A DNA stretch of 61,078 nucleotides from a virus: positions 1 through 61,078 of the IMG/VR virus record IMGVR_UViG_3300027718_000001; one strand, written 5' to 3'. The notes under the pieces were generated by a model. The model made no database searches. It saw nothing but the letters and a program-made list of their open reading frames with translations, and was not told the DNA's origin. The position numbers and the translations under genes were made by a program. Positions 7,356 to 38,499 of this stretch are shown here, in pieces (the first letter of the stretch is position 1; each line of letters starts with the position of its first letter).

Positions 7356-7382
7356 GAGAGGGGCTGAAAAGCCCTTCTATAT

Positions 7383-7454
7383 ATGAATATAAATGTGAAC
7401 GTATAGATGAATATGAATATACACATGCAGGTGAACATGCATGTAAATATGGAG
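7383..7454. repeat. RTNNAN hexamer-periodic tract A (12 hexamers)
   Basis: atgaat ataaat gtgaac gtatag atgaat atgaat atacac atgcag gtgaac atgcat gtaaat atggag. T at position 2 in 12/12, A at position 5 in 12/12. Confidence 0.8.
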
Positions 7455-7463
7455 GGAAAAACA

Positions 7464-9613: not shown

Positions 9614-9706
9614 TTATTTTGGTTGCCGTTTCTGGTGTTCTTTTATCGCTTGTTTATTTTTTGCATCTTGTGTGAAGATCATCATCATGATCATATCGAA
9701 TAACAT
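9614..9706 (-). CDS. 30-aa peptide at the end of the minus T4SS operon
   Basis: SD aaggagg. Peptide MLFDMIMMMIFTQDAKNKQAIKEHQKRQPK. Followed by a minus-strand terminator, caacca...tggttg plus T run. Confidence 0.35.
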   Translation of the reverse strand: MLFDMIMMMIFTQDAKNKQAIKEHQKRQPK

Positions 9707-9719
9707 TTATATCACCTCC

Positions 9720-10127
9720 TTATTGAAAGGTTAACTTCCATTTCCCTTCTTCTTTCACTAGGTCATAAGGTTTTATTTCAATGCTTCCATCTTCATTAGT
9801 AACCTTTACATCTATAGTCGCTGTTTGTCCGTTAATCTTCACGGTATCTTCTAGAGGATCAACCTTTTTATAATAACCGGCTTCTCTCTTTATGCCTTCT
9901 GAAATCGTTCCTGCAAGCCATGTACCGTTTTTATAATATTGAACAACCTCTGCTGCTACATATTCTTTCGCTTGATCAAGTTCACCCTTTTTAGCATTAT
10001 CGTAAAAAGCGGTAATAGAACTACTTGGATCATTATTTGTTTGAGCTTCAGCAAAGGCGAAGTATGAAGCCCCGCCTATGCCTGTTGCTAATGATAAAGC
10101 TATGATTGTCTTTTTAATCTTATTCAT
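9720..10127 (-). CDS. Secreted NTF2-like/DUF4878-like protein (possible VirB8-type scaffold)
   Basis: Signal peptide; C-terminal EEGKWKLTFQ; location next to the VirB6-like gene. Confidence 0.4.
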   Translation of the reverse strand: MNKIKKTIIALSLATGIGGASYFAFAEAQTNNDPSSSITAFYDNAKKGELDQAKEYVAAEVVQYYKNGTWLAGTISEGIKREAGYYKKVDPLEDTVKINGQTATIDVKVTNEDGSIEIKPYDLVKEEGKWKLTFQ

Positions 10128-10141
10128 GAATTATCCTCCTA

Positions 10142-10999
10142 TTATTTCGCCATAGGTATTTTTGTAATTCGTGAAGCGGCATATTTCATAACCGCAATCT
10201 TTCCTGCGCCGTTAGCGGCTCCTACAACTGTTTTACCAGCTCCAGATGAATAGATGAAAGTTCTAAGGTATTTAGGACCAACAATTAAAACGATGATTAA
10301 ACCACAAGCCATGATCAATTCATTTAGATCTTTACCATTACCAATTTGATTTAATATGAGAGATAAAACAGTTAATTGAAAAGCTTGTGTGAAGATTGTA
10401 GAAATTACTTCACGCCACCAGATAGGCCAGATATTCATTTCTTCATTTACAATAGTAATTCCAGCAATCGGTGCTCCTATAAATAAGATAGCTAATTCAG
10501 CTTGTCGAATAACGTATTGAATCGCTAGGATCAAATAAAGAATTACGATAACGAATGATGCAAAAGTAAGAGCTATATTTGATGTCACTGGATTTAAAAT
10601 AAAATTAGAAAATCTATCAGTGTCGAGACCTTGCTTTAAAAGAGCTTTACAATAAACGTTATTAAGTTTTAATAAACCTTGTGTCATGATGATTGGAGCG
10701 CCACATGCTAGGAATACACCTAAAAATGATTTAACAACGATTTCAGAAGCTGAACGGCTAACGTTACCACTAAAACCATTAAAATAGTATCTAATAACGT
10801 TGTAACTTAAAAACAGACTACATAAAGTAATGGCTAATGGAATCATCCATTCAGACATTGTACCTACATATCCTTTTTCAAAAGATGTAGGTTTTAAAAG
10901 GTATATTTCTAACCAATGCCAAGCGGCATCAGCCATAGCATCAATCAGTTGTTTCAAAAGGTCTGTAAGCCACTCTATAGGGCTTTTAAATGGGTTCAT
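10142..10999 (-). CDS. Polytopic membrane protein, VirB6/TrbL-like
   Basis: About 6 predicted TM segments; sits between the T4CP and VirB8-like genes. Confidence 0.5.
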   Translation of the reverse strand: MNPFKSPIEWLTDLLKQLIDAMADAAWHWLEIYLLKPTSFEKGYVGTMSEWMIPLAITLCSLFLSYNVIRYYFNGFSGNVSRSASEIVVKSFLGVFLACGAPIIMTQGLLKLNNVYCKALLKQGLDTDRFSNFILNPVTSNIALTFASFVIVILYLILAIQYVIRQAELAILFIGAPIAGITIVNEEMNIWPIWWREVISTIFTQAFQLTVLSLILNQIGNGKDLNELIMACGLIIVLIVGPKYLRTFIYSSGAGKTVVGAANGAGKIAVMKYAASRITKIPMAK

Positions 11000-11045
11000 T
11001 TGTTGTGTTCCTCCTTATTATAACCTAAAGTTTGGGTCAATATAC

Positions 11046-11060
11046 GTGTATCAGACTAAA
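11046..11060 (-). promoter_or_regulatory. TTTAGTCTnATAyAC motif copy
   Basis: gtgtatcagactaaa on the plus strand, upstream of the minus-strand gene 10999. Confidence 0.55.
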
Positions 11061-11101
11061 TTTATATAAAATAGTTCTTAAGTTTTGGATATGAGACTAA
11101 G

Positions 11102-13336
11102 TTAAACCTTATCTAGATCACCATATTCATCAGCAGGAACAGTTTTCTTTTTCCGTTTAGAACGTGGTTTAGATTCTTGTTTCATTTCTGCTTGCTCATG
11201 TTCTGATAATGGTGGTTCTTCCATTAGGAAAGCATCAGGTGGAAGAGTTGGATAATCAGCATCATCAAAATTATTAATTGGTTGTTCTTCTGGAAGTAGG
11301 GCAGGATCTAGAATGTTCAATTGAATTGTTGAATCTTCTTGTTTAGGTTTCTTTTCTCGTTTCTTAGCTTCTTTTTCAGCACCTTCATTAAGAGCTTCAA
11401 CAAATTCAGTTTCAACAGATTTTTTCTCCCTCTTCTTATTTTCTTTTTGAGCACGTTCTTCTTTTGCTTTCTTCAATTGATATTCAGGATCAGCAGAGTT
11501 AATAATCATTTCACTGTTATCACCGAAATCAGCAAGATCTAAAGGTTTATTCCCATTCGCTTCAAATAGTTTCTTAATTAATTCTCTAGGTTGGAATACA
11601 TCATATTCTGTACGTTCTGGAAAAGGGAATTTAAAACGGCTTATTGGTTCACCTAGTAGAGAATTCAATTCATCAATTTCATGTAACCATGCTTTTCTAA
11701 CTAACATAGGCATTTTAGTTCTCATTAAGACTATTAATGTATCATCATCTAGTCTTTGAAGATCCTCAGCCATCATGAGCTGTTTACCTGTAAAGCTTAA
11801 TGATGAACTTTCAGAAGATCCATTCTTACCAGAAGAATTTGATTCACTATCAATTTGAATCGTTGTTCGTCCTATCATTTTAGCGAAGTATTCAGCCGAT
11901 TCAGTGTTGTTAGCTCCTAGATAGATACGAGTATCACAGTTATCTATAATTTCTTCTGCAAGATCTTGACCCCATCTATGCCTTAATTGTCCTAAAGATT
12001 GAATAACAAGCATTACACTCATACCATAAGATCTCATTGTACTTAAACGTTCTGTAAATTGAGGTAAGCGACCAATGTTACAAAATTCATCAATCAAAAA
12101 TTTAACCTTAACAGGAAGTTTATTATTATTGTGATCAGCTACATGATAAAGTTCACCAAACATTTGATCAAAGAAGGTACTGATTAAAGGTCTAAATCGT
12201 GCTTCTGCAATTGGCATGATAACGAATAGAATTACTTTTTTATGTGCTAGGTCATGAAAGTTAAAATCATTTGTATAGGTGAAATCACATACTTCTGGAT
12301 ATTTCCATAAATCCATTGTTACCGAAGCGGTTGTAAAAACGTCTGCTGCTGTTTTTCCTCTCAATTTACTAATAGCTTGATAGTAGGCTCTTTTCGCTAT
12401 ATGGGTATCTGGTAAGCTTAGATATAGGAAATGAATGTGTTCAAATGAAGAAGTAAGTAATTCATATACACTTCCCATATGTTGCTGTTCTGGCTTCAAT
12501 ACATATTTCACATACAGGATAAGAGCAGATAAGAGTGATTTCTCAGCCTTTCCCCAGAAGTCAGATTGTTCTTTATTGCCTGCTGTAGCATTAGAAACAA
12601 TCGTTTCAACTATTTTATTAGCATCACTAGGTTTTCTAATGTAGCTTAGACATTCATAGCGTATAGAATATTCAAGTTCACTAAAATTAGCTACTATGAC
12701 TTCAAAACCTTGTAATCTCTTAATCTCAGCGCAAGATTCTAGCAATTCGCCTTTCGGATCAGTCACCACTATTGATCTATCAGTTATATTAACGATATTC
12801 GGTTTAATTAATCCTTGTGTTTTACCTGTACCTGCACCACCGAAAACGGCTATATTCTTATTCTTTTTTGTTTCTTCATTTAAAAGGATAAGTTTTTTCT
12901 TATTGTATCGGGCTAAGATGATAGCGCCAGATTCTAGATCATCGGTTATATCTCGTTTATCAAATATATCTGATTTTGTAGCCCATCTTGTGTTACCGTG
13001 TGAATTGTATTCATGAGCATCTTCTGCTTGTTTCTTTTTCATATTCTTTAAGATATGCCATGAGAAGAAACCAACACCGACCAGGAAACATAAGGGTTGC
13101 ATATCCATATTTATATTGCCTAGTATCGTTTGAAATGGATGTTCTAATAATGGATGAAAAACATCACCTACACTCACATGAGAGGTATTTGTACCACTAT
13201 TCATAGATCTTGTTACATCTTTTAGATCTGTTAAAGGTTGTTTCAAACTAAGAGCAGTACCAAAAACGAATTCAGATAATCCACCCATGAAGATCCCTTT
13301 TGCTATTGCTGGCTTAAGTTCTTTTTTGATCCCCAT
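11102..13336 (-). CDS. virD4: Type IV coupling protein (VirD4/TraG family)
   Basis: N-terminal TM segments; Walker A FGGAGTGKTQG; Walker B-like FLIDEFCNIG; 744 aa with an acidic/Lys-rich tail. Confidence 0.85.
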   Translation of the reverse strand: MGIKKELKPAIAKGIFMGGLSEFVFGTALSLKQPLTDLKDVTRSMNSGTNTSHVSVGDVFHPLLEHPFQTILGNINMDMQPLCFLVGVGFFSWHILKNMKKKQAEDAHEYNSHGNTRWATKSDIFDKRDITDDLESGAIILARYNKKKLILLNEETKKNKNIAVFGGAGTGKTQGLIKPNIVNITDRSIVVTDPKGELLESCAEIKRLQGFEVIVANFSELEYSIRYECLSYIRKPSDANKIVETIVSNATAGNKEQSDFWGKAEKSLLSALILYVKYVLKPEQQHMGSVYELLTSSFEHIHFLYLSLPDTHIAKRAYYQAISKLRGKTAADVFTTASVTMDLWKYPEVCDFTYTNDFNFHDLAHKKVILFVIMPIAEARFRPLISTFFDQMFGELYHVADHNNNKLPVKVKFLIDEFCNIGRLPQFTERLSTMRSYGMSVMLVIQSLGQLRHRWGQDLAEEIIDNCDTRIYLGANNTESAEYFAKMIGRTTIQIDSESNSSGKNGSSESSSLSFTGKQLMMAEDLQRLDDDTLIVLMRTKMPMLVRKAWLHEIDELNSLLGEPISRFKFPFPERTEYDVFQPRELIKKLFEANGNKPLDLADFGDNSEMIINSADPEYQLKKAKEERAQKENKKREKKSVETEFVEALNEGAEKEAKKREKKPKQEDSTIQLNILDPALLPEEQPINNFDDADYPTLPPDAFLMEEPPLSEHEQAEMKQESKPRSKRKKKTVPADEYGDLDKV

Positions 13337-13605
13337 TATTCAATCACCTTTCTTTTTTTTTCCGCCTTATCTAAAAGCTTGATTCCACAATTCACAAGGA
13401 AAATACATACCTTTAGAACGAAATGAACGAAGTATAACCACACTCCAATAGTTATTACAAAAGCAAGAATTGCAGAGAATACAGTGATTGAAGCGTATAG
13501 TATTGCTTGTAAAGCTTCATTATTTAAAAAAGCGTGTTCTGTCATTCCCCATAATTTTGATGGAATATACCATATAAGGTTTCTGAAATTATCTATAAAG
13601 TTCAT
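13336..13605 (-). CDS. Small membrane protein
   Basis: Two TM segments; ATGA-coupled to the T4CP gene. Confidence 0.5.
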   Translation of the reverse strand: MNFIDNFRNLIWYIPSKLWGMTEHAFLNNEALQAILYASITVFSAILAFVITIGVWLYFVHFVLKVCIFLVNCGIKLLDKAEKKRKVIE

Positions 13606-13607
13606 AT

Positions 13608-14279
13608 TTATCTAGACCTCCTTTGTGATCTTCTATGAGCCCTTAATTGTTCCATATCTTTCTCATATTCAGCTTCTAATTGGCGCATCTTTATCTGGAA
13701 CTTCAAGTTTTTGACGAATTGTTTTGTAATATCTAAAGATTGACCTTTATTTCGTCCTCTTCTATATCGGTCATTCCATTCAGGCCCACGTATTTGATCT
13801 TTTTCTTCTCTAAATTGCTTTCTAAACCATTCACGTTCTTCTCTACCAACACTAAGGTTCAATTTACGTTCTATTCCATCACGGTCTTTATAAGTCGATT
13901 TAATGGCTACATGAACGTGAGGGTGTCCATCTTCATTATGAATAGCACCAACCCATTCAACACGTTTTCCTTCTTTCAATTGCCAATCTTCCATGATGTT
14001 ACGAACCATCGTTTTATAGTCTTCTTCTTGAAAGCCCGATTTCTTGAATTCATCACCAGACATACTAAAAATTAATGTGTGGATCTTAGCACTGCTTGAA
14101 TGGGAAATTTTTTTGTCTTCTAGAGATTTATTAAATTTATAGACATCAACATTGTTGCTTCTATCGTTAAAAAGTCCATAATGTTTACCATCAGATCTTT
14201 GACGAAAAGCAATATATTTGATGTGATTTTTCGCTTTCCCTAGATTCTTTTTAAAACCCATCGAAACGAATTCACCCAT
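13608..14279 (-). CDS. Short MobP-type relaxase domain protein
   Basis: HNEDGHPHVHVAIKS matches the HxDxxHxH histidine triad. N-terminal IKYIAFR holds the candidate catalytic Tyr. Confidence 0.6.
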   Translation of the reverse strand: MGEFVSMGFKKNLGKAKNHIKYIAFRQRSDGKHYGLFNDRSNNVDVYKFNKSLEDKKISHSSSAKIHTLIFSMSGDEFKKSGFQEEDYKTMVRNIMEDWQLKEGKRVEWVGAIHNEDGHPHVHVAIKSTYKDRDGIERKLNLSVGREEREWFRKQFREEKDQIRGPEWNDRYRRGRNKGQSLDITKQFVKNLKFQIKMRQLEAEYEKDMEQLRAHRRSQRRSR

Positions 14280-14326
14280 AACTCTTAACCTCTTTTCCTT
14301 TTACCCTCTTATTTAATCTTATTGTA

Positions 14327-14341
14327 GTATATCAAACTAAA
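14327..14341 (-). promoter_or_regulatory. TTTAGTCTnATAyAC motif copy (variant TTTAGTTTGATATAC)
   Basis: gtatatcaaactaaa on the plus strand, upstream of the relaxase gene. Confidence 0.5.
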
Positions 14342-14361
14342 TGACTGTAAAAGAAAATAAA

Positions 14362-14859
14362 TTATTGAGCTTCTTGCATCTGATTGTTTTTCATATCAGC
14401 TTGTTTTTTCTTCTGTATCTGTTTAACAGCAATACCTGTTGCATTCTGTAAAAGTTGAATTCCGTTTACTGCTGCTGTCCAATCATCGGCAACTGATTCA
14501 CGGTTAGGATCTAAGATTTCAGAAACAAAAGTTCCATCTAACATTTCTTCTGTTGCTTCTAAAGAATGCTTATGAAGAGAAAGCATAAGGAATGGAATTA
14601 ATTTAACATCTACAGATTGATTGTAGATCATCCCTTTAACTTGATTAAAAAATTTATCTAATTTCCTATTCATAATTCCTTCCATGATTGGAGCATGTAA
14701 TTCATCATGTAGTGCTTGATCTTCTTTTGTTAAAAATGATTTGATCAGATCTTCTACACAAACAGATGGATTTTTATATCCTTGTCGTTCAGAAGCTTCA
14801 ATAAATTCATCTAAAACTTTTGCATCGATGTAGAAATGTTTTCTTGTCTTAACTGCCAT
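14362..14859 (-). CDS. Possible RHH-type relaxosome accessory protein
   Basis: N-terminal KHFYIDAKVLDEFIEASE is RHH-like; lies immediately upstream of the relaxase in the same operon. Confidence 0.4.
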   Translation of the reverse strand: MAVKTRKHFYIDAKVLDEFIEASERQGYKNPSVCVEDLIKSFLTKEDQALHDELHAPIMEGIMNRKLDKFFNQVKGMIYNQSVDVKLIPFLMLSLHKHSLEATEEMLDGTFVSEILDPNRESVADDWTAAVNGIQLLQNATGIAVKQIQKKKQADMKNNQMQEAQ

Positions 14860-14861
14860 AT

Positions 14862-15026
14862 TTAATCCTCCTTATTTTCTTCTAAATATGAATCTGCTAA
14901 TCCATTCATAAAACACCGATAACAGATTTTTAATTTGAATTCTTTCGTATCAGTTAATGCTAAAAAATCACTACCACAACTTTTACATTCTAAGCTTTTT
15001 GTTTCTGTAGTTTCATTTTTCATCAT
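14862..15026 (-). CDS. 54-aa zinc-ribbon protein, below the track cutoff
   Basis: SD aaggag. Hand translation: MMKNETTETKSLECKSCGSDFLALTDTKEFKLKICYRCFMNGLADSYLEENKED. Confidence 0.5.
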   Translation of the reverse strand: MMKNETTETKSLECKSCGSDFLALTDTKEFKLKICYRCFMNGLADSYLEENKED

Positions 15027-15138
15027 TAAGTTCTCCTTAGTTTTTTAAGCCATATATAGTAGATTGTGCAAAATCCTTAATTACGGTATATTAGATTATG
15101 AAATCTCTTATGGTACACAAATGAATGGCTTAGTTATA

Positions 15139-15153
15139 GTATATAAGACTAAA
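15139..15153 (-). promoter_or_regulatory. TTTAGTCTnATAyAC motif copy
   Basis: gtatataagactaaa on the plus strand, about 115 nt upstream of the minus operon start. Confidence 0.5.
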
Positions 15154-15189
15154 AGTGTGCCGTCAAGTAATATTTGTGGTACACAACAC

Positions 15190-15680
15190 AGACCTTGCGT
15201 AGCAAGGCTTTTTAAAACCAGTGTGCTGGTTTTTCTCTCTGCTCAAAGGGGAGAAAGGGCGTAGTGGTAGGATGAAGCGTAGCGAATCAACCACGGTTTT
15301 AGGTGAAAATTCACAATTTGAGCCGTAGCCCCTTTCTCACTTTTCGGGATCTCGTACGCCCTTGTGTGGAGGTCATGGAGCTATGATTTCTTTCGTCCAG
15401 AAAGAGTATCAAGTGTAAAACCGAAACACACCAGAAGGAGCGAAGCGGAGTCTGGAAGCACTTGGCGATTTTGTATTTTGACCTAAGTTGCTACATATTA
15501 TCTAAAGAGAAATTACTTCGGTAAATGATCAGTATCTACCCCATTAAGGCTACTTCGGTATTACGAGCTGTAAGGGCGTATTGAAGCGGTTAGGGGAATT
15601 TGTAAGAAAGATGGCAGGATAAGTGAAAAAGGGTGAAGCGTGCTCTTTTTGTGCGGGATCTGTGCCAAACTCTACATAAT
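15190..15680 (+). ncRNA. GC-enriched ORF-free stem-loop block: candidate large structured RNA, oriT or single-strand origin
   Basis: Hairpins ccttgc/gcaagg and aaccag/ctggtt. A 9-bp helix gagaaaggg (15251-59) / ccctttctc (15330-38) encloses nested stems. Two cUUCGg loops sit at 15513-24 and 15551-60 on the plus strand. Confidence 0.4.
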
Positions 15681-15748
15681 ATAATCTAAAAAAGGTATAA
15701 GTGATTAAGAACAAGAAAAGAATGAATATGAAAGGGGGTTTTCTTGAG

Positions 15749-16462
15749 ATGGGTAAATTAAATAGAGGAAATGTAACCAAGTTGTCAATTAGATTGACTG
15801 GAAATGCTTCTAAGGAAATTCAAAGGTTGTCAATGATCTTGAATCTTTCACAAGCCGGAGTTATTTTACATTCTCTTTCTAAGATCCTGAAAGAAAAACC
15901 TGATATGCACGAATTATTAAATTTAGAAGCTAAGTATGATCTAGCACCTAAAAACTTTGCTCTTACAATCAAAAGAGAAGTCGCTGACAGAATTAATGAT
16001 ATGAATGTTACATTAGATATGAATAAGAATATCTGGGTTGGTTTGTTGGTTTCTGATTACTTTGAAAAACGTCATGAACAACATATTAAGGATCAAGTAC
16101 CACCAGAAGAGTTAGATAGGATAGAAGAAGAATTAGCAAAAGATGAACCTGTAATTAAAACAGATACTACACAAGTTAAGATTGAAATTAATACAGAGCT
16201 AAAAAAAAAGATAGTTGAATTCAGTGAAAAAAACTATATTGCTTTAAGTGGATTAGTGGCTTATTCATTATTAAATGGTCCTTATGAAGATATTCCAGAA
16301 TATCGTTCAGGAGGGAAAGAGGATTTCTTCACAAATATTCCTGTTTATCTATATGAAGATATTAAGAAGAAAACCAAAGGGTTATACCCAAAAGAAGGCT
16401 TCTATTATGAGCTGTGTTTATATAACGCATTTATGGGAGAAGACCCAGTATTCAAGTTGTGA
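15749..16462 (+). CDS. Tandem ribbon-helix-helix DNA-binding protein
   Basis: Two RHH-like units: KLSIRLTGNASKEIQRLSMILNLSQAGVILHSL and QVKIEINTELKKKIVEFSEKNYIALSGLVAYSL. Confidence 0.5.
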   Translation: MGKLNRGNVTKLSIRLTGNASKEIQRLSMILNLSQAGVILHSLSKILKEKPDMHELLNLEAKYDLAPKNFALTIKREVADRINDMNVTLDMNKNIWVGLLVSDYFEKRHEQHIKDQVPPEELDRIEEELAKDEPVIKTDTTQVKIEINTELKKKIVEFSEKNYIALSGLVAYSLLNGPYEDIPEYRSGGKEDFFTNIPVYLYEDIKKKTKGLYPKEGFYYELCLYNAFMGEDPVFKL

Positions 16463-16651
16463 AGTTGGAGCGATAGACGCTCCTTTTTTTTTGGGAAATA
16501 AAGAAGAAAAGTTTTCTCTAGGTGTATAAATACGTGTCATATCAACAGCAAAGACCACCCATTATATTTAGATTGTATAAGGTGGTCTTATCTGTATTCA
16601 TGCTATATATCTATTCGTAAAATCACGACAATATATTTAACTATTAAAATT

Positions 16652-16777
16652 TAGTTTAACTTAAGGTCTACTTGTAGTGTATCAGACTATAATGAGTTGA
16701 ACTTTAGTTCAATTAGAGTGTAACAGACTAAATGTAGTAGTTTAACTTAAGTTCACTTTGTAGGGTATTAGACTAAA
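16652..16777 (-). repeat. Three direct repeats of about 37 bp at 43-44-bp spacing, each ending in the TTTAGTCT motif (iteron or oriT candidate)
   Basis: agtttaacttaaggtctacttgtagtgtatcagacta / agttgaactttagttcaattagagtgtaacagacta / agtttaacttaagttcactttgtagggtattagacta. Confidence 0.7.
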
Positions 16778-16782
16778 TGGGT

Positions 16783-25034: not shown

Positions 25035-25190
25035 AACGGTAAGCGGAGCAAGGGCGGTTTTCCCTTGTGAGCATTAAGGAGTTGACACCCTTAACTATGC
25101 CCAAAACCTCTTGGCATTGAACAAACAACCGTTTGTTCCTGCCTACCGGCGAGGTAGCCCTTCCAAGATTGGAAGGGTTGGGTAGGTTGA
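25035..25190. other. GC-rich block of five consecutive stem-loops between convergent genes
   Basis: gggtgtcaac/gttgacaccc (10 bp), caaggg/cccttg, atgcc/ggcat, gaacaaac/gtttgttc (8 bp), cctacc...cccttcca/tggaaggg...ggtagg; no T run. Confidence 0.45.
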
Positions 25191-25592
25191 TCATTTGATC
25201 TTATGGGTTGTTAGGATCTTATTAAGTTCAACTAAATATTTAAAACGTTCGTTTTTATAGTCTTTAAATCTTTTTATATCCCATTGATCAGCATAAGGGT
25301 TAATAGTGAAGTTCATTTTTTCTTTATCCCAGAAGATCACATGTTTATCTACTAAGAATTCCAATTCATCTTTTACTTTGGTTGGAGATACCCCACAGTT
25401 TCTAAAGTCTTTAAGTGTAGGAATGTGGGTTGTAAGAGATTTAGTATGTACTGTAAAGGATAATAAGAAAAATAATATATTAGTTTGTCTTTTAGTAAAA
25501 TCACGGCTACAAAAGGTATCTAGCCATTTATTCATCGCTTGAAAATAGAATTGTAAAGCTTCATCATTTGATTGTGTTTGTTCTTGTAACAT
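25191..25592 (-). CDS. Replication-protein-O / replisome-organiser N-terminal-like winged-helix protein
   Basis: FTKRQTNILFFLLSFT...LKDFRNCGVSPTKVKDELEFLVDKHVI. Start set at MLQEQ, 8 nt after aagggag. Confidence 0.45.
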   Translation of the reverse strand: MLQEQTQSNDEALQFYFQAMNKWLDTFCSRDFTKRQTNILFFLLSFTVHTKSLTTHIPTLKDFRNCGVSPTKVKDELEFLVDKHVIFWDKEKMNFTINPYADQWDIKRFKDYKNERFKYLVELNKILTTHKIK

Positions 25593-25687
25593 GATCATTT
25601 CTCCCTTAAAGATGTATATTTGATATATCATTCTTGGATAAACCAGAAAAAAACTTCCCGTTTTGGGAAGTTTTAATGTTATGATTT

Positions 25688-25900
25688 TTAGTTACCGTAT
25701 TTATATTTTAAGTAACGAAAGTATTGAATCCCTGCATCATCTAAACATTTTTCAAGTTCCTTTAAATCGAAGTCTTGCCAGTTTAACTTTAGATCGTACT
25801 CTACAGCAATAGTATGTACAATTTCCATAAGCTTCATTTTCTTGTTAAATGGTTGTTCTGGGTTCTCATTGAATTTTAATTTAGTCGATGGCAATACCAT
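25688..25900 (-). CDS. 70-aa hypothetical protein (start moved to MVLPSTK)
   Basis: SD taaggggg immediately upstream of 25900. Confidence 0.45.
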   Translation of the reverse strand: MVLPSTKLKFNENPEQPFNKKMKLMEIVHTIAVEYDLKLNWQDFDLKELEKCLDDAGIQYFRYLKYKYGN

Positions 25901-26158
25901 TTCCCCCTTATGTATATGCAAATGCAGAAATATTCTAAAAATATAAAGAAAAAAATCAAAACATACTATCTTTACCACTAAATTGCAGATATAAACATAA
26001 TTTTGTCATATTTCCTGCTATAGTTACAAGGATTTTTACAACCAGTCAAAAGGGAGGGAGATTAGTAGGATGATATGGGGAAAATAAATAAATTGGATAA
26101 TCCTTCTTGAAATTTTACTTCACACCATGTAAAATAAAAGCACAAACAGAAAAAAAGC

Positions 26159-26277
26159 CTGTCGAAGTTGGACGCTTCAACAGACTTGTATTTGTTCCAG
26201 TCACTTTGGACGAGTGACCGAAAAACTCCCAATAGTTTAAATAAATAAATGAATTTCCAATTGGACACTGGAAATTC
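26159..26277. repeat. Three hairpins with a shared TTGGAC(G/A) loop, 270-390 bp upstream of rep
   Basis: ctgtcgaag-TTGGACG-cttcaacag (26159-83); gtcac-tTTGGACGa-gtgac (26200-18); gaatttcca-aTTGGACAc-tggaaattc (26251-77). Confidence 0.7.
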
Positions 26278-26547
26278 TACAGACAAAAGAAAAAATATCC
26301 ACCTCAAACTTGTTCAATACAGAATAAGAGAGAAAAGTATTTTTTTAACTTAAGTCAATTATACAATAGGTATAAGGCAAACACAACGCTTTTTGTTAAC
26401 ATATAGTAAAGTTTCATCAAAAAAATATATCTTTTTTTGATAATTTGTGGTATTTAGGGAGCTTTTTTGGTTATCTTTATTCGTCCGTAAGGAAAGAACA
26501 AATACTTTTTCTTGTTTTGAATTCAAAATAGGGAGAGGTATTTTTTT

Positions 26548-27891
26548 ATGAGTAAAAATACAAAACAAAAAGATAGCAAGAAAAATAGACGTATAAGCGC
26601 AGTAAAGGCCAGTAGTGAATCTTATTTCAAATTACATTGGTTTTTATTGTATGAAGATAAATATCGTAAGTTAACACCAAAAGCTAAATTGCTTTATGGA
26701 TTGTTAAGAAGTCGGTTTGATTTATCTAATACGAATGTACAGAACGGTACTTCTGATGCTGAAAAATTTATCGATGAAGAAAACAATATCTTTTGTATCT
26801 TTGATAACGTTGAAATTAGTTTTCTTATGGATATGTCAGTTCCAACTGTTATTGATGCTAAGAAAGAATTAGATGAAGCTGGATTGTTAGAAGAAGTTCA
26901 AATAAAAGATCAAGCAAACCGTCTTTATGTTCTAGATCCTGTGTTAGATTCTGATATGTGGACCTTCAAACAGCAGTTAGCAGATATTAAAGCTAAGAAA
27001 GCTGAAAAGGATAAGGAACGTGTTAGAAAACAAAAAGAAAAACGTAAACAAAAGGCTCTTGAAAAGAAACAGGAGAAAGCCAAAAAGAAAGCAATGGCTA
27101 ATGGAGTTGTTAACATTGGTAATGAAAATGCAGAGGAAAAAAGTTGTGATTCAAAAAATTTAAATCACACAAAAAAGGACGATTCTACAGATTTTTGTGA
27201 TTCAAATAATTTAATTCACGTGAGTAAAGATTTTTTAGACAATATTACTAGAGTATTTAATTTACTAGATTTAAAAGATCTTAGTAAGTATGTAAGTAGC
27301 GGTGAAACTCAAAGTGTATTGGAATTCTATAAAATATTCTTTAAGCTCAGTAAGTATGCAGAAATCAATTTAGTAAAGTTCATTGAAGAAAGATCTGCAA
27401 GTATTGTGTTAGAAGCGATTGTAAGAGCCATTGATAAGGATGATATTAATTCACCTATTGCTTTCATCAAGAAAACATTAAATAATTGGTCTAATTGTAA
27501 AACGGTTGAAGAAGTATTGAAGCATGAAGAAGAGTATCGTAAACAACAAAATCAGAAGTATGAGAAGAAGTCTTCTAAACAGCGCAAGGTTGTAAGAAAA
27601 GAAATGCTTCCTGAGTGGTTTAAAGAGAATAAGCACAAAGAAAATGCACCAAAAGAAGAAGTAGACGCAGATTTTGAAGAGGTAAAACGTAAGTTAGAGC
27701 AGGAATTAAAAGATTTAGACCAAGAATTAAAAGCAAAAAACAAAAAGCCTAAAGAAAAAGATCCAGTTTCAGAAGACCAGTTATTAAAAGTTGCGAAATT
27801 CAAGTTAAAACATCAACAAGAGAATTTAACAGAGCAAGAAAAAGATCTTCTTAAACAGCATGGGTTATATAAAGAGCCGGTTATTGCCTGA
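26548..27891 (+). CDS. rep: RepA_N-family plasmid replication initiator with a C-terminal DnaD/DnaB_2-like domain
   Basis: YFKLHWFLLYEDKYRKLTPKAKLLYGLLRSRFDLS...LYVLDP (RepA_N pattern); C-terminal IAFIKKTLNNW. Confidence 0.75.
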   Translation: MSKNTKQKDSKKNRRISAVKASSESYFKLHWFLLYEDKYRKLTPKAKLLYGLLRSRFDLSNTNVQNGTSDAEKFIDEENNIFCIFDNVEISFLMDMSVPTVIDAKKELDEAGLLEEVQIKDQANRLYVLDPVLDSDMWTFKQQLADIKAKKAEKDKERVRKQKEKRKQKALEKKQEKAKKKAMANGVVNIGNENAEEKSCDSKNLNHTKKDDSTDFCDSNNLIHVSKDFLDNITRVFNLLDLKDLSKYVSSGETQSVLEFYKIFFKLSKYAEINLVKFIEERSASIVLEAIVRAIDKDDINSPIAFIKKTLNNWSNCKTVEEVLKHEEEYRKQQNQKYEKKSSKQRKVVRKEMLPEWFKENKHKENAPKEEVDADFEEVKRKLEQELKDLDQELKAKNKKPKEKDPVSEDQLLKVAKFKLKHQQENLTEQEKDLLKQHGLYKEPVIA

Positions 27892-27942
27892 GAATGTTCA
27901 GATTCCCCTAGAATCGTTTTTTAGGGGAATTCATAGGGTTTA

Positions 27943-27957
27943 GTATATCAGACCAAA
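27943..27957 (-). promoter_or_regulatory. TTTAGTCTnATAyAC motif copy (variant TTTGGTCTGATATAC)
   Basis: gtatatcagaccaaa on the plus strand, just after the rep terminator hairpin. Confidence 0.45.
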
Positions 27958-28041
27958 TTAAAAGTAAATTAGATGGTTTTAAGCGGGTTTTATATATTTA
28001 CAGATTAATATTTAAAAGTATTCATATATGGGGGCATTAGA

Positions 28042-28458
28042 GTGAGAAAGGTAGAAGCTGTTATAGAACTAATCAAATTAGAAAATTCTTATAGAAAGGT
28101 AAGGCGAGCCCAGTTAGAAGAAGTCTATCCCATGTTCAAAGATCTTTATGAAACCTTATTAAACAAACATTTTGAAGTTAGTATGGCTGAAATAAATATT
28201 ACTCAAAATTTCATAAATGTGATGCTACATGATGAACATAGAGATATTCTTATACCTGAATTTCTAGAGCATGAACATACTAAACATTGTGATGTGGAAA
28301 TGACTATTGATGAAAAAATTGAGCTTTCAAAGGATTTATTTGAGGTTGAAATGAAATATAAAGATAAACAGAAATCATTGAATTCTAAAGGGATCTATAT
28401 TCATTTTCATCATCTAATGAGCTTACATCGCAAATTAATACAAGAATTAGGGGGGTAA
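28042..28458 (+). CDS. Hypothetical protein (GTG start)
   Basis: ORF with SD-like gggggc. Confidence 0.45.
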   Translation: MRKVEAVIELIKLENSYRKVRRAQLEEVYPMFKDLYETLLNKHFEVSMAEINITQNFINVMLHDEHRDILIPEFLEHEHTKHCDVEMTIDEKIELSKDLFEVEMKYKDKQKSLNSKGIYIHFHHLMSLHRKLIQELGG

Positions 28459-28494
28459 CTCCCTTCTTTCTATTCTGGAAGGTCAATAATACAA

Positions 28495-28523
28495 TTCACA
28501 AGCAGTAAAGAGTTTGCTATAAT
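28495..28523 (+). promoter_or_regulatory. parA promoter: operator-like TTCACAagcAGTAAA (28495-28509) plus extended -10 TGcTATAAT (28515-28523)
   Basis: Read directly. Confidence 0.55.
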
Positions 28524-28527
28524 TTAC

Positions 28528-28581
28528 ATGCATGTTCACATGCAGGAAAACATTCATATATAGATACATAATCACCTGCAT
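28528..28581. repeat. RTNNAN hexamer-periodic tract B (9 hexamers)
   Basis: atgcat gttcac atgcag gaaaac attcat atatag atacat aatcac ctgcat. Begins 5 nt after the -10 box. Confidence 0.7.
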
Positions 28582-28607
28582 GAATTGAAAGGTGGAGGTT
28601 AGACAAT

Positions 28608-29486
28608 ATGGCGAAAAAGGCGAAAGTTCTAGGCATTTTCAACAATAAAGGCGGAATTCTTAAGAGCTCGTTAACAAGTAATCTAGCGGCTTCATATGCT
28701 TTAAAAGGTCATAAGGTGTTAATTATTGATATGGATTCACAAGCTAATATGTCGCAGATCTTTGGATTGAATGCTGATATTTTTGATCCTAACATTTATG
28801 ACACATTGGTAAATGATGAACACCCTAAAAGAGCTATTATTAATGTGTATGATGAAATGCGTAAAAGACATGAAGATAACATAGATGTTCCTACGGTTTT
28901 AAAATCAGTTGATATGTTACCAAGTAATGATGATATGACGATGTTTGAAATCGATGTTTTAATGGACGAGGATTTTAAAGACACATATTTTAATTTATTG
29001 AGAAAAGTTATACGTCAAGTAGAATCAATCTATGACTATATTTTAATAGATAGTCCTCCTAATATGGGGATCTGTGCAGGAAATATTTTGACTGCTGCTG
29101 ATCGTGTTTTAATTCCATTTCATCCTGAAACGCTATCAAAACGTTCTTTGATGAAAACCATAAAAAGGGTGGGTAAATTTAAAAACAGTCTGAACCCAGA
29201 TTTAGAGATCTTAGGAATTGTAGGTACTAAAGTAAAAATGAATACTAAACAGCATAAGAAAAATCTCAAAGAAACGATTGAATATGCTAAAACTAAGGAT
29301 ATTCATTTTTTCAAAAACTATGTACCTGAAACGATTAAAGGGGCAGATGCAGTAGATGAAGAGTGTGTACCCGCAGTTCTCTCTTCAATCAAATTTAATA
29401 AAGAAATGAAGCGGTTAAAGGCTCATTACAATGATTTATTTGAAGAGATCTATGCGATGGAAGGAGAGATTGCTCATGTCAAATGA
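28608..29486 (+). CDS. parA: ParA/Soj-family partition ATPase
   Basis: Deviant Walker A FNNKGGILKSS; IIDMDSQAN; ILIDSPP. Confidence 0.85.
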   Translation: MAKKAKVLGIFNNKGGILKSSLTSNLAASYALKGHKVLIIDMDSQANMSQIFGLNADIFDPNIYDTLVNDEHPKRAIINVYDEMRKRHEDNIDVPTVLKSVDMLPSNDDMTMFEIDVLMDEDFKDTYFNLLRKVIRQVESIYDYILIDSPPNMGICAGNILTAADRVLIPFHPETLSKRSLMKTIKRVGKFKNSLNPDLEILGIVGTKVKMNTKQHKKNLKETIEYAKTKDIHFFKNYVPETIKGADAVDEECVPAVLSSIKFNKEMKRLKAHYNDLFEEIYAMEGEIAHVK

Positions 29487-29844
29487 TCCATATAGAGACG
29501 ATGAAACTAATCCTTATGATGAAACTAAGAAAAAGAAGAAAACAAAAGACACTGGTGTTAAAACACTTGATAGCTTAGTGGATAAAGAAGAAACGGAAGC
29601 GGCTAAAGATGAAGTTGCTGTGGCTACAGAAACAAAGAAAAAGCCAGCTAAAAAGAAAACGTCTCTAGACACGTATGGTCAGAAGAAACCACCTAAAGAA
29701 CCTGTGCACATTTTCTTTGATCCTGATGTTAAAAAGATTCTCATGCAGGAACAGAAAAAAAGGGGCCGAGGTTTTAAGAGTAATTATGTGAATGATCTTG
29801 TACGTAAAGAGTTTATAAAAGATGGCTTATTGCCAGAAGAATAA
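29476..29844 (+). CDS. Small Lys-rich centromere-binding partner (ParG/omega-like RHH C-terminus)
   Basis: Overlaps the parA end; SD ggaaggagag; C-terminal VHIFFDPDVKKILMQEQKKRGRGFKSNYVNDLVRKEF. Confidence 0.5.
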   Translation: MSNDPYRDDETNPYDETKKKKKTKDTGVKTLDSLVDKEETEAAKDEVAVATETKKKPAKKKTSLDTYGQKKPPKEPVHIFFDPDVKKILMQEQKKRGRGFKSNYVNDLVRKEFIKDGLLPEE

Positions 29845-31049: not shown

Positions 31050-31057
31050 GTTTTTAA

Positions 31058-31129
31058 ATGAATATGAACATGAATCTTCATATGAACGTATACATGCAGG
31101 TTCATGTTCAGGTGAAGGAGAAGATGAAA
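31058..31129. repeat. RTNNAN hexamer-periodic tract C (12 hexamers)
   Basis: atgaat atgaac atgaat cttcat atgaac gtatac atgcag gttcat gttcag gtgaag gagaag atgaaa. Ends on the start codon of ORF 31129. Confidence 0.8.
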
Positions 31130-31996: not shown

Positions 31997-32068
31997 ATTC
32001 ACATGGTTGTTCTTATTCAGATAAATATGAAGGTTCACCTGCATGTGAATGTGCAGGTGAATATAACT
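31997..32068. repeat. RTNNAN hexamer-periodic tract D (12 hexamers; 10-bp hairpin ttcacctgca/tgcaggtgaa)
   Basis: attcac atggtt gttctt attcag ataaat atgaag gttcac ctgcat gtgaat gtgcag gtgaat ataact. Confidence 0.75.
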
Positions 32069-32105: not shown

Positions 32106-32408
32106 ATGGCAATGAAAATGAGTGAGTTAGAAGCTAAGAAATTTGAAGGTTTTTCAGAAGTTAATTATGAAATTTTGAAAGAAACTTTAGAGTGTGATTG
32201 TGAACCTTATGTAGATATTTTTACTTTCAATCGATGGAAAGCACAGGGTTATATTGTGAGAAAAGGTCAAAAAGCTACTAAGATTACAACCATCGTAAAG
32301 AGAGAATATGAAGATAAAAAATCAGGTGAGAAAGAAACAAAAACTTACCCTAAAAAAGCTTCTGTATTTTGTAGATGTCAGGTAGAGAAGAAAGGGGCTG
32401 ATGAATAA
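32106..32408 (+). CDS. ArdC-N/DUF1738-like ssDNA-binding domain protein
   Basis: FTFNRWKAQGYIVRKGQKATKI resembles the TF.qW...G..VrKGeKa motif. Confidence 0.4.
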   Translation: MAMKMSELEAKKFEGFSEVNYEILKETLECDCEPYVDIFTFNRWKAQGYIVRKGQKATKITTIVKREYEDKKSGEKETKTYPKKASVFCRCQVEKKGADE

Positions 32409-33030: not shown

Positions 33031-33402
33031 TTATTTAGCTCTTGTAATTCTATTTAGAATAGATGTAACAATATCTATATCAGCTTCATCTAGGACTATT
33101 CCATCATAAGTAATATCTTTTGATAACATTATGTTCTTAAGATCTTTAGGTTCATTTGAAGATTTAAGAGGATCATCAGTTAGTCCTAAAAGATAATCTA
33201 CAGAAGTATTATATAGATCAGCAAGCTTATATAAAGTATCTTTTCTAGGATTTCTAAGCCCTAATTCATAGTTAGCAATGGTAGTATTAGACATCCCAAC
33301 TTTGATACCTATATCTTCTTGTTTTAAATTATGTTTTATTCTTAGTTCTTTTAATCGTTTACCAGTTAGTTCTCTATTACCTTGTGATAATTTATCTTGC
33401 AT
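33031..33402 (-). CDS. XRE-family CI-like repressor
   Basis: HTH_3: LKELRIKHNLKQEDIGIKVGMSNTTIANYELG. Divergent from the Cro-like gene. Confidence 0.8.
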   Translation of the reverse strand: MQDKLSQGNRELTGKRLKELRIKHNLKQEDIGIKVGMSNTTIANYELGLRNPRKDTLYKLADLYNTSVDYLLGLTDDPLKSSNEPKDLKNIMLSKDITYDGIVLDEADIDIVTSILNRITRAK

Positions 33403-33734: not shown

Positions 33735-33935
33735 GTGAGATTTTGGTTGAAAGAACTTAGAGGTCAAGCAGGTTATAATCAGCAAGAATTTGCTGAAAAA
33801 GTTGGTGTCTCTGAGTCGTATATATGTTTAATTGAAAAAGGAATTAGAACTCCATCAGGGGTTACAGCGTATAAGATCGCTAAAATATTAAAATTCGATA
33901 TGAAGAGGTTTTATGAAGATGAAAAAATTAAATAA
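33735..33935 (+). CDS. XRE-family Cro-like regulator (GTG start)
   Basis: LKELRGQAGYNQQEFAEKVGVSESYICLIEKG. Confidence 0.75.
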   Translation: MRFWLKELRGQAGYNQQEFAEKVGVSESYICLIEKGIRTPSGVTAYKIAKILKFDMKRFYEDEKIK

Positions 33936-34333: not shown

Positions 34334-35314
34334 ATGACAACTAAGGCGAAAAAGTTAGTAAACACTAGAGGTTTAAGCGTTAAAGATTGGTTAGATTGGC
34401 GTAGAAGAGGTATCGGTGGCTCCGATGCTTCTGCTATCGCAGGTCTGAATAAGTGGAAAAGTTCCCTTAATGTGTACATGGACAAAGTTGAACCCAGTGA
34501 AGAAAGTGAAATATCAGAAGCGGCTGAATGGGGCATAAGACAAGAACCTATAGTTAGGGATAAGTTCAAAGATAATCATCCCGAATTACAGGTAAAGCAA
34601 AGTTATATTATGTGGCAATCGATTGAATATCCTTTCATGATCGCTAATGTGGATGGCTTGGTTTTTCATCCTCAAAAGGGTTGGGGAGTATTAGAAATTA
34701 AAACTTCTCATGAATGGCGGTTAGGTGAATGGAGTGAAGAAGAGATTCCAGAAGATTACCTCATACAGTGCCAGCATTATTTAAGCGTGTTAAATCTCAA
34801 TTTCTGTTATTTTGCTGTTCTGATTGGTGGAAACAAATATAAAGAATTCTATGTAGAAAGAGACGATGAATTAATTGCTTCTCTTATCGAATTAGAAAAA
34901 GATTTCTGGATGAATCACGTATTAGCGCTTAATCCACCTGAACCAGATGGATCAAAGGGAAGCGGTGAGATCCTTGACTTTCTTTATCCTGCATCAGCAA
35001 TGAAGAAAAAAGAAGAGGTTAAGGAGTTACCGAAAGAAGCTTTGTATCTGGTAGAAGAGTATCTAGCTTTCACTGAACAAGAAAAAGCGGTTAAGGATGA
35101 AAAAGAATCTCTAAAGAACAAGCTGAAATCTATGTTAGGTGAATACCAGGTAGGACAAGTAATTGATCTAGATAAACAAAGGGAACTTAAAGTGAAATGG
35201 TCAGAAGCGGCTACTACAGGATTTGATAAAAAGGCTTTAGAACGTGATCATCCTGAAATTTTTGAAAAGTACGTTAAAAAAGGCAAAACAAGAAGATTTA
35301 CAATTAGCGGATAA
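34334..35314 (+). CDS. YqaJ-like recombination exonuclease
   Basis: RRRGIGGSDASAIAGLNKW...AAEWGIRQEP...LEIKT. Confidence 0.8.
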   Translation: MTTKAKKLVNTRGLSVKDWLDWRRRGIGGSDASAIAGLNKWKSSLNVYMDKVEPSEESEISEAAEWGIRQEPIVRDKFKDNHPELQVKQSYIMWQSIEYPFMIANVDGLVFHPQKGWGVLEIKTSHEWRLGEWSEEEIPEDYLIQCQHYLSVLNLNFCYFAVLIGGNKYKEFYVERDDELIASLIELEKDFWMNHVLALNPPEPDGSKGSGEILDFLYPASAMKKKEEVKELPKEALYLVEEYLAFTEQEKAVKDEKESLKNKLKSMLGEYQVGQVIDLDKQRELKVKWSEAATTGFDKKALERDHPEIFEKYVKKGKTRRFTISG

Positions 35315-35331
35315 AAAGGAGAAGAGACAAT

Positions 35332-36156: not shown

Positions 36157-36212
36157 GGTTAGGGGGCAATGGGTTCTCTCATTGCCTTTTCATAAAAAGA
36201 AAGGGGCATGTT

Positions 36213-36722: not shown

Positions 36723-36761
36723 CGGAAGCGTAGCAAAGGTGTAGAAAAATAGCTAAAGGAG

Positions 36762-38397: not shown

Positions 38398-38499
38398 ATG
38401 TATGTGTACATGCATGTGCATGTAGATGTGTAGGAGCACATGTATAGATACATGCATGTTCATATAAATGAGAAGGAGAACGTTCACATGAATGTTTTC
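38398..38499. repeat. RTNNAN hexamer-periodic tract E (17 hexamers), directly before the late operon
   Basis: atgtat gtgtac atgcat gtgcat gtagat gtgtag gagcac atgtat agatac atgcat gttcat ataaat gagaag gagaac gttcac atgaat gttttc. Confidence 0.8.

Follow-up and report, generated by a model that had tools for sequence, protein, structure and literature searches.

A circular phage-plasmid of soil Bacillaceae with a conjugation gene module

The IMG/VR virus record IMGVR_UViG_3300027718_000001, a stretch of 61,078 nucleotides that was analysed over its full length (the window), represents one circular replicon of 61 kb. On this replicon the genes of a complete tailed temperate phage occur together with those of a plasmid and with an intact set for conjugation. 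The three gene sets, each of them intact, share a circle that has no integrase gene, and the window is one member of a conserved family, made up of temperate phage-plasmids of the siphovirus type that occur in soil Priestia and Peribacillus (Bacillaceae). With a probability of roughly 0.6 we regard the element as a circular phage-plasmid of about 61 kb that possesses a minimal Gram-positive conjugation module and would have two horizontal routes, infection and conjugation. An assembly artefact and a recent fusion were rejected. What is new is that, in this phage-plasmid family, a full conjugation module forms part of the conserved core. The original prediction, made from the sequence alone, had described a siphovirus on one circle with a plasmid replicon and a near-complete type IV secretion system (T4SS) and without an integrase.

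One circle and its relatives

The predicted closure of the window on itself was borne out by an exact repeat of the terminal 127 nt (1-127 = 60952-61078), which reduces the 61,078-nt window to a circle of 60,951 bp with a GC content of 35 %, and by a tail open reading frame (ORF) of 1,245 aa that spans the junction uninterrupted (57627-61078, plus strand, ending at window position 413). In JGI the contig bears the identifier 3300030516 Ga0268255_10000139. An ENA contig from a k=141 assembly had 61,092 nt, i.e., 60,951 + 141, and matched the window at 100 % identity; another assembler probably arrived at this circle from the same reads. The ENA and Logan copies of the window were rejected as independent samples, being 100 % identical and probably derived from the same reads.

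In at least nine related elements of 57.7-64.1 kb, one replicon combined these phage genes with these conjugation genes, the proteins being about 40-75 % identical. A tblastn search with the large terminase subunit (TerL) led to closed circular plasmids of the soil isolates Peribacillus asahii CMF4 (58,069 and 58,089 bp, NZ_CP085718.1/NZ_CP085719.1) and Peribacillus frigoritolerans KF19 (61,415 bp and 116,332 bp, NZ_CP085515.1). Their annotation lists on one replicon Dit, holin, endolysin, TerL, a minor head protein, RecT and RecU on the phage side, and a DUF4878 protein, TrbL, a VirD4-like protein, a DUF87 ATPase and a lysozyme-family protein on the conjugation side. Thirty-nine ORFs of the window had syntenic homologues in the Peribacillus plasmids, with identities of 40-48 % for the T4SS, 50-68 % for virion proteins and 43-53 % for recombination proteins. 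A Priestia aryabhattai contig of 62.6 kb presented the T4SS, RepA_N, a resolvase, holin and endolysin at 7.9-28.6 kb and the genes from CI/Cro to the tail at 36.9-58.2 kb. The T4SS was found together with TerL and portal genes in a JGI record (3300080650, 63,871 bp), on a single contig with TerL and capsid genes in Logan SRR28432166 (59,353 bp), and adjoining the lysis genes (holin, amidase/endolysin) in Logan SRR32555622 (57,683 bp). A Priestia megaterium contig (JBDIZI010000020.1, 64,068 bp), viewed in its T4SS part, encoded a type IV coupling protein (T4CP) with 74 % identity. Other contigs of 58-64 kb, from Halobacillus sp. H74 and several from JGI, were related by their TerL and may carry the T4SS as well. 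Replication and partition genes varied: the window and KF19 carry RepA_N with a ParA-type ATPase, in CMF4 there is a ParM, and RepA_N has no match. What stayed constant across the members were the genes for the T4SS and the virion. As a side observation, the 116-kb record of KF19 contained two TerL matches; this record and the near-equal pair of CMF4 could be dimers, concatemers or two co-resident variants.

A misassembly is excluded, since this syntenic, diverged architecture recurs in closed Peribacillus plasmids and in Priestia and metagenome contigs of 58-64 kb. The relatives are far stronger evidence against a chimeric assembly than the RTNNAN tracts on which the original prediction had based the same conclusion. 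The tracts themselves were recovered in both the phage and the plasmid part, with 56 matches to six tandem units against 0.07 expected. The tetranucleotide composition of the arc from 9.6 to 29.8 kb correlated with that of the remaining circle at 0.986, no lower than for other arcs.

No near relative emerged when the plasmid arc was compared by megablast with PLSDB, and the phage arc with phage genomes; the sole matches were to the intron described below, a Bacillus-plasmid RNA and one intergenic stretch. Scans with degenerate patterns, which were narrow and make negatives weak, yielded nothing in IMG/VR with either VirB4 or the T4CP alignment, only distant T4CPs in metagenomes, and one non-phage relative, Bacillus sp. 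MUM 116, among GTDB genomes. No description of this Bacillaceae family was found in the literature.

The conjugation genes and a candidate origin of transfer

The conjugation genes form two operons:

9720-10127, minus strand: DUF4878 protein, membrane-anchored at its N-terminus and encoded by the last gene of the relaxase/T4CP operon (Pfam 1.7e-8)
10142-10999, minus strand: VirB6-like polytopic membrane protein (TrbL_4, Pfam 1.1e-27)
11102-13336, minus strand: VirD4-like T4CP of the CD1115 family (T4SS-DNA_transf, Pfam 1.2e-83)
13608-14279, minus strand: short HUH relaxase, 223 aa, MOBP-like (motifs, fold, sub-threshold profile match)
14362-15026, minus strand: two small conserved ORFs heading the relaxase operon, 165 aa and 54 aa, the latter with CxxC...CxxC
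15166-15138, minus strand: promoter of the relaxase operon, with the candidate origin of transfer (oriT) just upstream
15160-15300, no strand assigned: candidate oriT with motif GGCRGAGAKAAA, a covarying hairpin and then the hairpin CCWTGC-N3-GCWAGG (core 15193-15207)
15701-16462, plus strand: 253-aa protein, conserved, its gene pointing away from the relaxase operon (without a match in Pfam or NCBIfam)
18098-20560, plus strand: start of the second T4SS operon, small membrane proteins in the same order in relatives
19573-20133, plus strand: YkuD L,D-transpeptidase (Pfam 2e-21)
20171-20560, plus strand: pilin-like membrane protein (T4SS_pilin 1.3e-3, a weak match)
20621-20941, plus strand: 106-aa protein with two hydrophobic segments, directly upstream of VirB4, conserved in relatives
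20938-21627, plus strand: TrsD/TraC-like protein, the detached N-terminal domain of VirB4, 229 aa (NCBIfam TrsD 3e-18)
21567-23636, plus strand: VirB4-type conjugation ATPase with a His/acidic C-terminal tail (P-loop_TraG 1.6e-18)
23633-24995, plus strand: CwlT-like SLT + NlpC/P60 cell-wall hydrolase (Pfam), spliced product 366 aa, with exon 1 at 23633-23970, a group I intron at 23971-24232 and exon 2 at 24233-24995

The calls of a coupling protein, a VirB4 and a relaxase were backed by profile hidden Markov models (HMMs), motifs and fold. For the T4CP, the NCBIfam equivalog model conju_CD1115 scored 392 bits, above its cut-off of 250, and the VirB6-like assignment was equally confirmed by its TrbL_4 match, the protein being 35-48 % identical in relatives. 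The relaxase, predicted as short and MobP-like, stood on its conserved motifs and predicted fold, while its HMM scores stayed below the curated cut-offs (Pfam Relaxase 5e-5, 24.0 vs 24.6 bits; NCBIfam MobP3 3e-15). Tyr22 within NHxKYI and the series H114...H119-P-H121-x-H123 were invariant in homologues down to 37 % identity; by sequence, these residues are the tyrosine and histidine-triad motifs of HUH relaxases. An AlphaFold model built with nine sequences (pLDDT 77.7, pTM 0.71) had as its top 31 Foldseek matches in the PDB exclusively conjugative relaxase domains, among them TrwC, pCU1 TraI, R1162 MobA, NES, F TraI, pKM101 TraI and MobM, at probabilities of 0.99-1.00 and TM-scores of 0.37-0.50. 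A profile-versus-PDB sequence search with the relaxase gave nothing, and a viral structure library, in which the fold is almost absent, contained no match at E <= 1e-3.

The 674-nt intergenic region upstream of the relaxase operon had a DNA conservation well above that of flanking synonymous sites. Its element next to the operon presents, in this order, the motif GGCRGAGAKAAA, a hairpin, an A-rich spacer (TAAAAG in most members), a second hairpin and the -35/-10 promoter. In the first hairpin the stem sequence differs among members with the pairing always kept, and the second hairpin, CCWTGC-N3-GCWAGG, shows a compensatory T:A to A:T change. The core was present in all eight relatives examined, including the two non-phage plasmids pJ62_2 and MUM 116. 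Pairing was kept in 88.8 % of the cells of the alignment; shuffles came to 71 %, and slid controls did not exceed 52 %. The score for covariation, 0.395 vs 0.122, was reached by 0 of 500 shuffles. Position and form of this conserved double-hairpin element fit an oriT, for which it is our candidate. The rest of the region, 15300-15700, is relatively GC-rich with blocks of 83-96 % identity to Priestia relatives and could hold a non-coding RNA or further relaxosome sites; Rfam at permissive thresholds returned nothing credible for 14.9-16.9 kb.

Where the original prediction had seen one VirB4 gene (20938-23636), the ATPase was confirmed and the gene proved to be two ORFs in different frames. They overlap by 61 nt, with a GGAGG ribosome-binding site before the second ATG. 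The upstream ORF matched PF26593 (TraC-like, precomputed) and the first 140 positions of the VirB4 model; the TrsD model scored 66 bits against a cut-off of 200, with low identity to the pIP501/pSK41 family. The downstream ORF exceeded the cut-offs of P-loop_TraG (67 bits vs 25.8) and AAA_10 (27.7 vs 27.5 bits) and matched the CD1110/VirB4 models only from about position 176 onward. The NCBIfam VirB4 models remained below cut-off because the N-terminal domain is a separate ORF. The split is kept in P. asahii, P. aryabhattai, P. megaterium and three metagenome or SRA relatives, and in B. cereus plasmid pJ62_2 both parts are fused into a single ORF of 830 aa. A sequencing frameshift was rejected, as the two-ORF layout and its ribosome-binding site are conserved in relatives and match TrsD + TrsE; this is a genuine two-gene arrangement as in trsD-trsE.

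The CwlT-like hydrolase retained its predicted SLT and NlpC/P60 domains, and its gene turned out to be discontinuous. It is interrupted by a group I intron of 262 nt (Rfam RF00028, 85 bits) with predicted splicing after U23970 and after G24232; these canonical U/G boundaries restore the reading frame, and a pseudogene was rejected on these grounds. The spliced junction KTWV|GWSYPGG matches ASWIGWSYPGR in the uninterrupted P. aryabhattai homologue, and the hydrolase of the P. megaterium relative is interrupted alike (L089). The intron region shares 80 % nucleotide identity with P. megaterium plasmid NZ_CP071471.1. Group I introns are common in genes of Bacillus phages; inside a conjugation gene such an intron seems unusual.

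The other candidate mating-pair-formation genes lie in the same cluster, with the VirB6-like protein and the hydrolase recognised by HMM, the pilin-like protein weakly (1.3e-3) and the VirB3-like protein by position only. For the last, predicted as PrgI/VirB3-like, position, size and hydrophobic segments agree with the assignment, and Pfam and NCBIfam HMMs gave no match. Neither collection supported the several ribbon-helix-helix (RHH) proteins of the original prediction, for whose labels the grounds are of the same kind. The DUF4878 gene adjoins TrbL in relatives as well. Its product is a candidate VirB8-like component; its single-sequence AlphaFold model was poor (pLDDT 50.6) and unusable for such a comparison, and a profile-versus-PDB sequence search returned noise only. 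The 165-aa and 54-aa ORFs may encode relaxosome accessory proteins, and the 253-aa protein is a candidate regulator. Between the two operons lies a gene for an extremely acidic protein of 398 aa with EPEPEH-type repeats (16783-17979, minus strand). It matches no family and is conserved in relatives only in part; a role as a DNA mimic or in anti-restriction would be a guess. Downstream of the terminator of the 253-aa ORF, the intergenic stretch 16547-16634 was 88.6 % identical to the Priestia flexa plasmid NZ_CP040366.1, with Rfam matches at chance level only.

The T4SS genes were intact in every family member viewed. Ratios of nonsynonymous to synonymous substitution rates (dN/dS) against Priestia relatives ranged overall from 0.10 to 0.31, rough values given a saturated dS: 0.10 for the T4CP (measured against the P. 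megaterium relative), the relaxase and the TrsD-like protein, 0.13-0.15 for VirB4 and 0.25 for TrbL. Virion genes had 0.04 (major capsid protein) and 0.07 (portal) in a range of 0.04-0.2. The direction is unambiguous, with pN far below pS in the T4SS genes, and as far as sequence comparison reaches, the conjugation genes are under purifying selection comparable to that on the virion genes.

Replicon, phage genes and parentage

The plasmid functions follow directly on the second T4SS operon, and the phage genes fill the remaining circle:

25029-25098, plus strand: Bacillus-plasmid RNA motif RF01691 (44.5 bits, gathering score 31)
25191-25631, minus strand: Phage_rep_O-like protein (Pfam 7.8e-10)
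26548-27891, plus strand: RepA_N replication initiator (Pfam 3e-13)
28608-29486, plus strand: ParA ATPase (AAA_31 9e-38)
29431-29844, plus strand: ParA partner, 137 aa, C-terminus conserved in relatives
32106-32408, plus strand: protein with ArdC N-terminal domain, ssDNA-binding, anti-restriction (Pfam 7.7e-7)
33031-33402, minus strand: CI-like helix-turn-helix repressor, divergent from the Cro-like one
33735-33935, plus strand: Cro-like helix-turn-helix repressor, divergent from the CI-like one
34334-37226, plus strand: YqaJ exonuclease, RecT, RecU, sigma factor
39970-47161, plus strand: small terminase subunit (TerS), TerL, portal-MuF fusion, scaffold-like protein, major capsid protein
47179-57636, plus strand: head-tail connectors, major tail protein, poly-gamma-glutamate hydrolase, chaperones, tape measure (1,318 aa), Dit
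57627-61078, crossing the junction to 413, plus strand: Tal/receptor-binding tail protein, 1,245 aa
1286-2909, plus strand: GH25 endolysin and holin

Plasmid initiator and partition ATPase thus sit on the same replicon as the virion genes. RepA_N was confirmed as predicted; of the predicted pair of ParA and a small RHH partner, the ATPase stood and the RHH label of the partner lacked HMM support. No Pfam integrase, resolvase or transposase domain occurred in window ORFs of at least 150 aa, and tblastn of the window with six recombinases from related elements gave no match (all E > 0.9), in agreement with the predicted lack of a tyrosine or serine recombinase. Among the hallmarks of prophage integration, an integrase and flanking attachment sites, an integrase or resolvase was not found in any frame. 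The traits of extrachromosomal maintenance are present, i.e., no recombinase found, a circular contig, and relatives present in isolate genomes as closed circular plasmids. In several relatives, the accessory region that separates the T4SS from the lysis genes encodes a small serine resolvase of 186-214 aa (L095 16747-17391; L092 18995-19573; L002 8438-8998). As the window has no serine resolvase, multimer resolution may rely on RecU/RecT or host functions. The RF01691 motif lies directly 3' of the T4SS operon, ahead of the replication region, and is 95 % identical over 61 nt to a Bacillus velezensis plasmid.

The predicted virion, lysis and lysogeny-switch gene set was found complete, with TerS, TerL, portal-MuF, major capsid protein, adaptors, major tail protein, tape measure, Dit, Tal, holin, GH25 endolysin and the retained CI/Cro switch. 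Since the tail module (47179-57636) contains no sheath gene, the phage is of the siphovirus type. The ArdC-N-like ssDNA-binding protein, 63 % identical to the 'ArdC-like' protein of CMF4, is an additional conjugation-associated gene. Between major tail protein and chaperones, the gene for a poly-gamma-glutamate hydrolase (50612-51238, plus strand; Pfam 1.8e-52) is kept in the P. aryabhattai and Logan relatives; its product is probably a capsule depolymerase aiding infection. Just upstream of the terminase, genes for a ParB_N-like protein and then a TET-associated glycosyltransferase (TAGT, 9e-12) occupy 38492-39888 (plus strand); in the same place a JGI relative (L101 1-2671) has two TAGT genes, a radical-SAM enzyme and a nucleotidyltransferase, which suggests a DNA hypermodification module.

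The RTNNAN tracts, hexamer-periodic as in ATGAAC ATGCAG GTGAAC, have these positions:

7377-7459, 17142-17201, 23491-23609, 28522-28568, 31053-31128
32015-32061, 38398-38444, 43132-43178, 51235-51317

Some code for His/Asp-Glu-rich tails (VirB4 C-terminus, 398-aa acidic protein). Others abut or enter gene starts (ParA, 31129, ArdC-like 32106, ParB_N-like 38492, 51295), and their translation there gives peptides of the MNMN(I/L)HM type. Relatives share a few of the tracts (L095, L089, L001, L003).

The parentage of both parts could be traced. Phage vB_BcM_CUBc25 (PV037644.1, 47 kb, isolated on B. cereus), on which no paper was found, has 20 ORFs in common with the window, including RepA_N (44 % over 386 aa), portal-MuF (53 %, full length), capsid, connectors, tail tube, Dit, Tal, RecU, dUTPase and CI/Cro. 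Like the window, it has no integrase annotated; it differs in the lack of any T4SS gene, a genome smaller by 14 kb, a different terminase (32 % over part) and an AimR arbitrium receptor. The CUBc25 lineage is itself of the plasmid-prophage type, and the common RepA_N means that the replicon belongs to the phage lineage and not to a separate plasmid half. On the other side, B. cereus pJ62_2 (NZ_AP022966.1, 48.6 kb, with a mercury-resistance Tn3) has only nine ORFs in common with the window, all of the T4SS, and on the contig of Bacillus sp. MUM 116 the same cluster adjoins RepA_N and a two-component system. VirB4 homologues of 45-49 % identity are found on many small Bacillus and Halobacillus plasmids. 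In pJ62_2, MUM 116 and a 17.9-kb plasmid of Halobacillus naozhouensis, gene set and order are those of the window: TrbL, the CD1115-type T4CP, a relaxase of 214-223 aa, the 165-aa and 253-aa proteins, the pilin-like and VirB3-like proteins, VirB4, the SLT/C40 hydrolase, and the hairpin element upstream of the relaxase operon. These plasmids differ in their cargo (mercury-resistance Tn3, two-component system) and have no virion genes. From these comparisons, the family looks like a CUBc25-type plasmid-prophage with a Bacillus-plasmid conjugation module of about 14 kb, which appears to have been acquired between lysis genes and replicon and kept through extensive divergence.

With the known phage-plasmids (P1, N15, SSU5; groups of Pfeifer et al. 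2021, PMC7969092) the window has in common the extrachromosomal temperate tailed phage, its own initiator and partition ATPase, the absence of an integrase, and conserved phage genes combined with a variable replication/partition set. Unlike these, it holds relaxase, T4CP, VirB4, VirB6 and hydrolase genes within the conserved core. The phage-plasmid literature has screened for conjugation genes, and according to a 2025 review no element combining phage, plasmid and conjugation set has so far been found. For P1-like elements there are documented derivatives, plasmids that have lost the phage genes and acquired oriT or relaxase genes. Co-integrates exist as well, such as E. coli p1002-1 and the fusion of pMT1-like elements with a conjugative plasmid. 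In Streptococcus phage-ICE (integrative and conjugative element) tandems (PMC13651849) and in prophages on conjugative megaplasmids (PMC12934698), a phage genome can travel via a cis-encoded conjugation channel, as proposed for the window. Those tandems, megaplasmid prophages and co-integrates are accretions of separable elements with their own integrases or replicons, often oversized and expected to be packaged poorly, whereas the window is one integrase-less replicon of conserved size and gene order. The secretion system follows the component logic of pIP501, pSK41/pGO1, ICEBs1 and pCW3, i.e., T4CP, VirB4, VirB6-like and VirB3-like proteins and a bifunctional peptidoglycan hydrolase; as in the window, trs/tra operons have a separate TrsD-like protein ahead of the VirB4 homologue. 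It differs from pIP501, pSK41, ICEBs1 and pCW3 by low identity, a domain-only relaxase of 223 aa, the intron in the hydrolase gene, and the lack of a recognisable VirB8-like protein or LPXTG adhesin.

Proposed routes of transfer

During lysogeny the element would be maintained by RepA_N and ParA as a plasmid prophage. Its relaxase would nick the conserved hairpin element upstream of its own operon, the T4CP would feed the single strand through a channel of VirB4, TrsD, VirB6-like and VirB3-like proteins, and the spliced hydrolase and YkuD would remodel the cell wall, such that the whole 61-kb element would be transferred as single-stranded DNA into a neighbouring cell. Upon induction, TerS and TerL would package the same genome into virions. 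The conjugation route would be independent of the phage receptor; conjugative entry into a repressor-free cell might, by way of speculation, trigger lytic growth and thereby permit receptor-independent host switching. That transfer takes place by both routes falls somewhat short of an even chance in our estimate. The wider proposal, of a natural, evolutionarily stable temperate-phage family with a self-transmissible plasmid prophage and of the first natively conjugative phage-plasmid lineage, is similarly tentative.

Several points weigh against the two-route phage-plasmid. Virion formation and conjugation are for every member read from its genes, and we know of no experimental characterisation of this T4SS lineage. 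MOB-suite types the Peribacillus plasmids and pJ62_2 as non-mobilizable, probably because the short relaxase lies below the HMM cut-offs. No VirB8-like protein or surface adhesin was identified with confidence in the window, the double-hairpin element could be a regulatory RNA or operator instead of an oriT, and the dN/dS values suffer from the saturation mentioned. CUBc25 has only 47 kb, so the capacity of the capsid for 61 kb would have to be assumed.

The size difference also favours an alternative in which conjugation is the sole real route, the element being a conjugative or mobilizable plasmid with a phage-derived module that no longer makes infectious virions and might be a defective prophage or give rise to gene-transfer-agent-like or killer particles. 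With the closest isolated phage 14 kb smaller, packaging of 61 kb is presumptive; P1-like derivatives without phage function and with oriT or relaxase genes provide precedents, and the narrow patterns detected no IMG/VR contig with this T4CP or VirB4. We nevertheless consider such a plasmid unlikely. Virion, packaging and lysis genes are all intact, syntenic with an isolated phage and strongly constrained (capsid 0.04, portal 0.07), the CI/Cro switch is retained, and the family, although its accessory genes vary, keeps to a narrow size range (57.7-64.1 kb), which a limit set by the capsid would predict. Less likely still is a functional phage-plasmid whose T4SS does not move the element itself and serves protein or DNA export, cell-envelope remodelling, exclusion or the mobilisation of other plasmids. 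The minimal relaxase (223 aa) below the thresholds of curated models, the lack of an identified VirB8-like protein or adhesin, and the envelope enzymes YkuD and SLT/NlpC-P60 hydrolase within the cluster would suit such a role; a relaxase with intact catalytic residues, a coupling protein and an adjoining hairpin element are, in contrast, specific to DNA transfer, and the same cluster and element occur on ordinary plasmids, where self-transfer is the obvious role.

Fusions of phage-plasmids with conjugative plasmids exist (p1002-1, the pMT1-like fusion), which lends some plausibility to a recent co-integrate or an assembly chimera of a phage or phage-plasmid and a separate conjugative plasmid. 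For the window this origin is very improbable. Neither PLSDB nor the phage collection contained a near-identical parental replicon, the architecture is kept across members that differ by 30-60 % at the protein level in isolates and metagenomes alike, and the single RepA_N initiator is of the phage lineage. The composition is homogeneous (0.986) with RTNNAN tracts in both parts, and the window is of typical size for the family, no outlier.

Virion transfer and conjugation have been contrasted by their trade-offs, burst size and dispersal on one side and a receptor-independent, non-lethal transfer with broad host range on the other (PMC12282955). Both have been treated as mutually exclusive strategies, a dichotomy that an element keeping both would break. 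An element with both machineries would also confuse classifiers of viruses and plasmids. Members of the family reside in cultured isolates, P. asahii CMF4, P. frigoritolerans KF19 and strains of P. aryabhattai and P. megaterium. If the two-route phage-plasmid is real, both machineries are kept in a genome limited by the size of the capsid, and one and the same 58-64-kb genome would have two ways to spread, in virions or by way of the type IV secretion channel that it encodes. By conjugation the phage would then reach cells without its receptor, where zygotic induction might follow.

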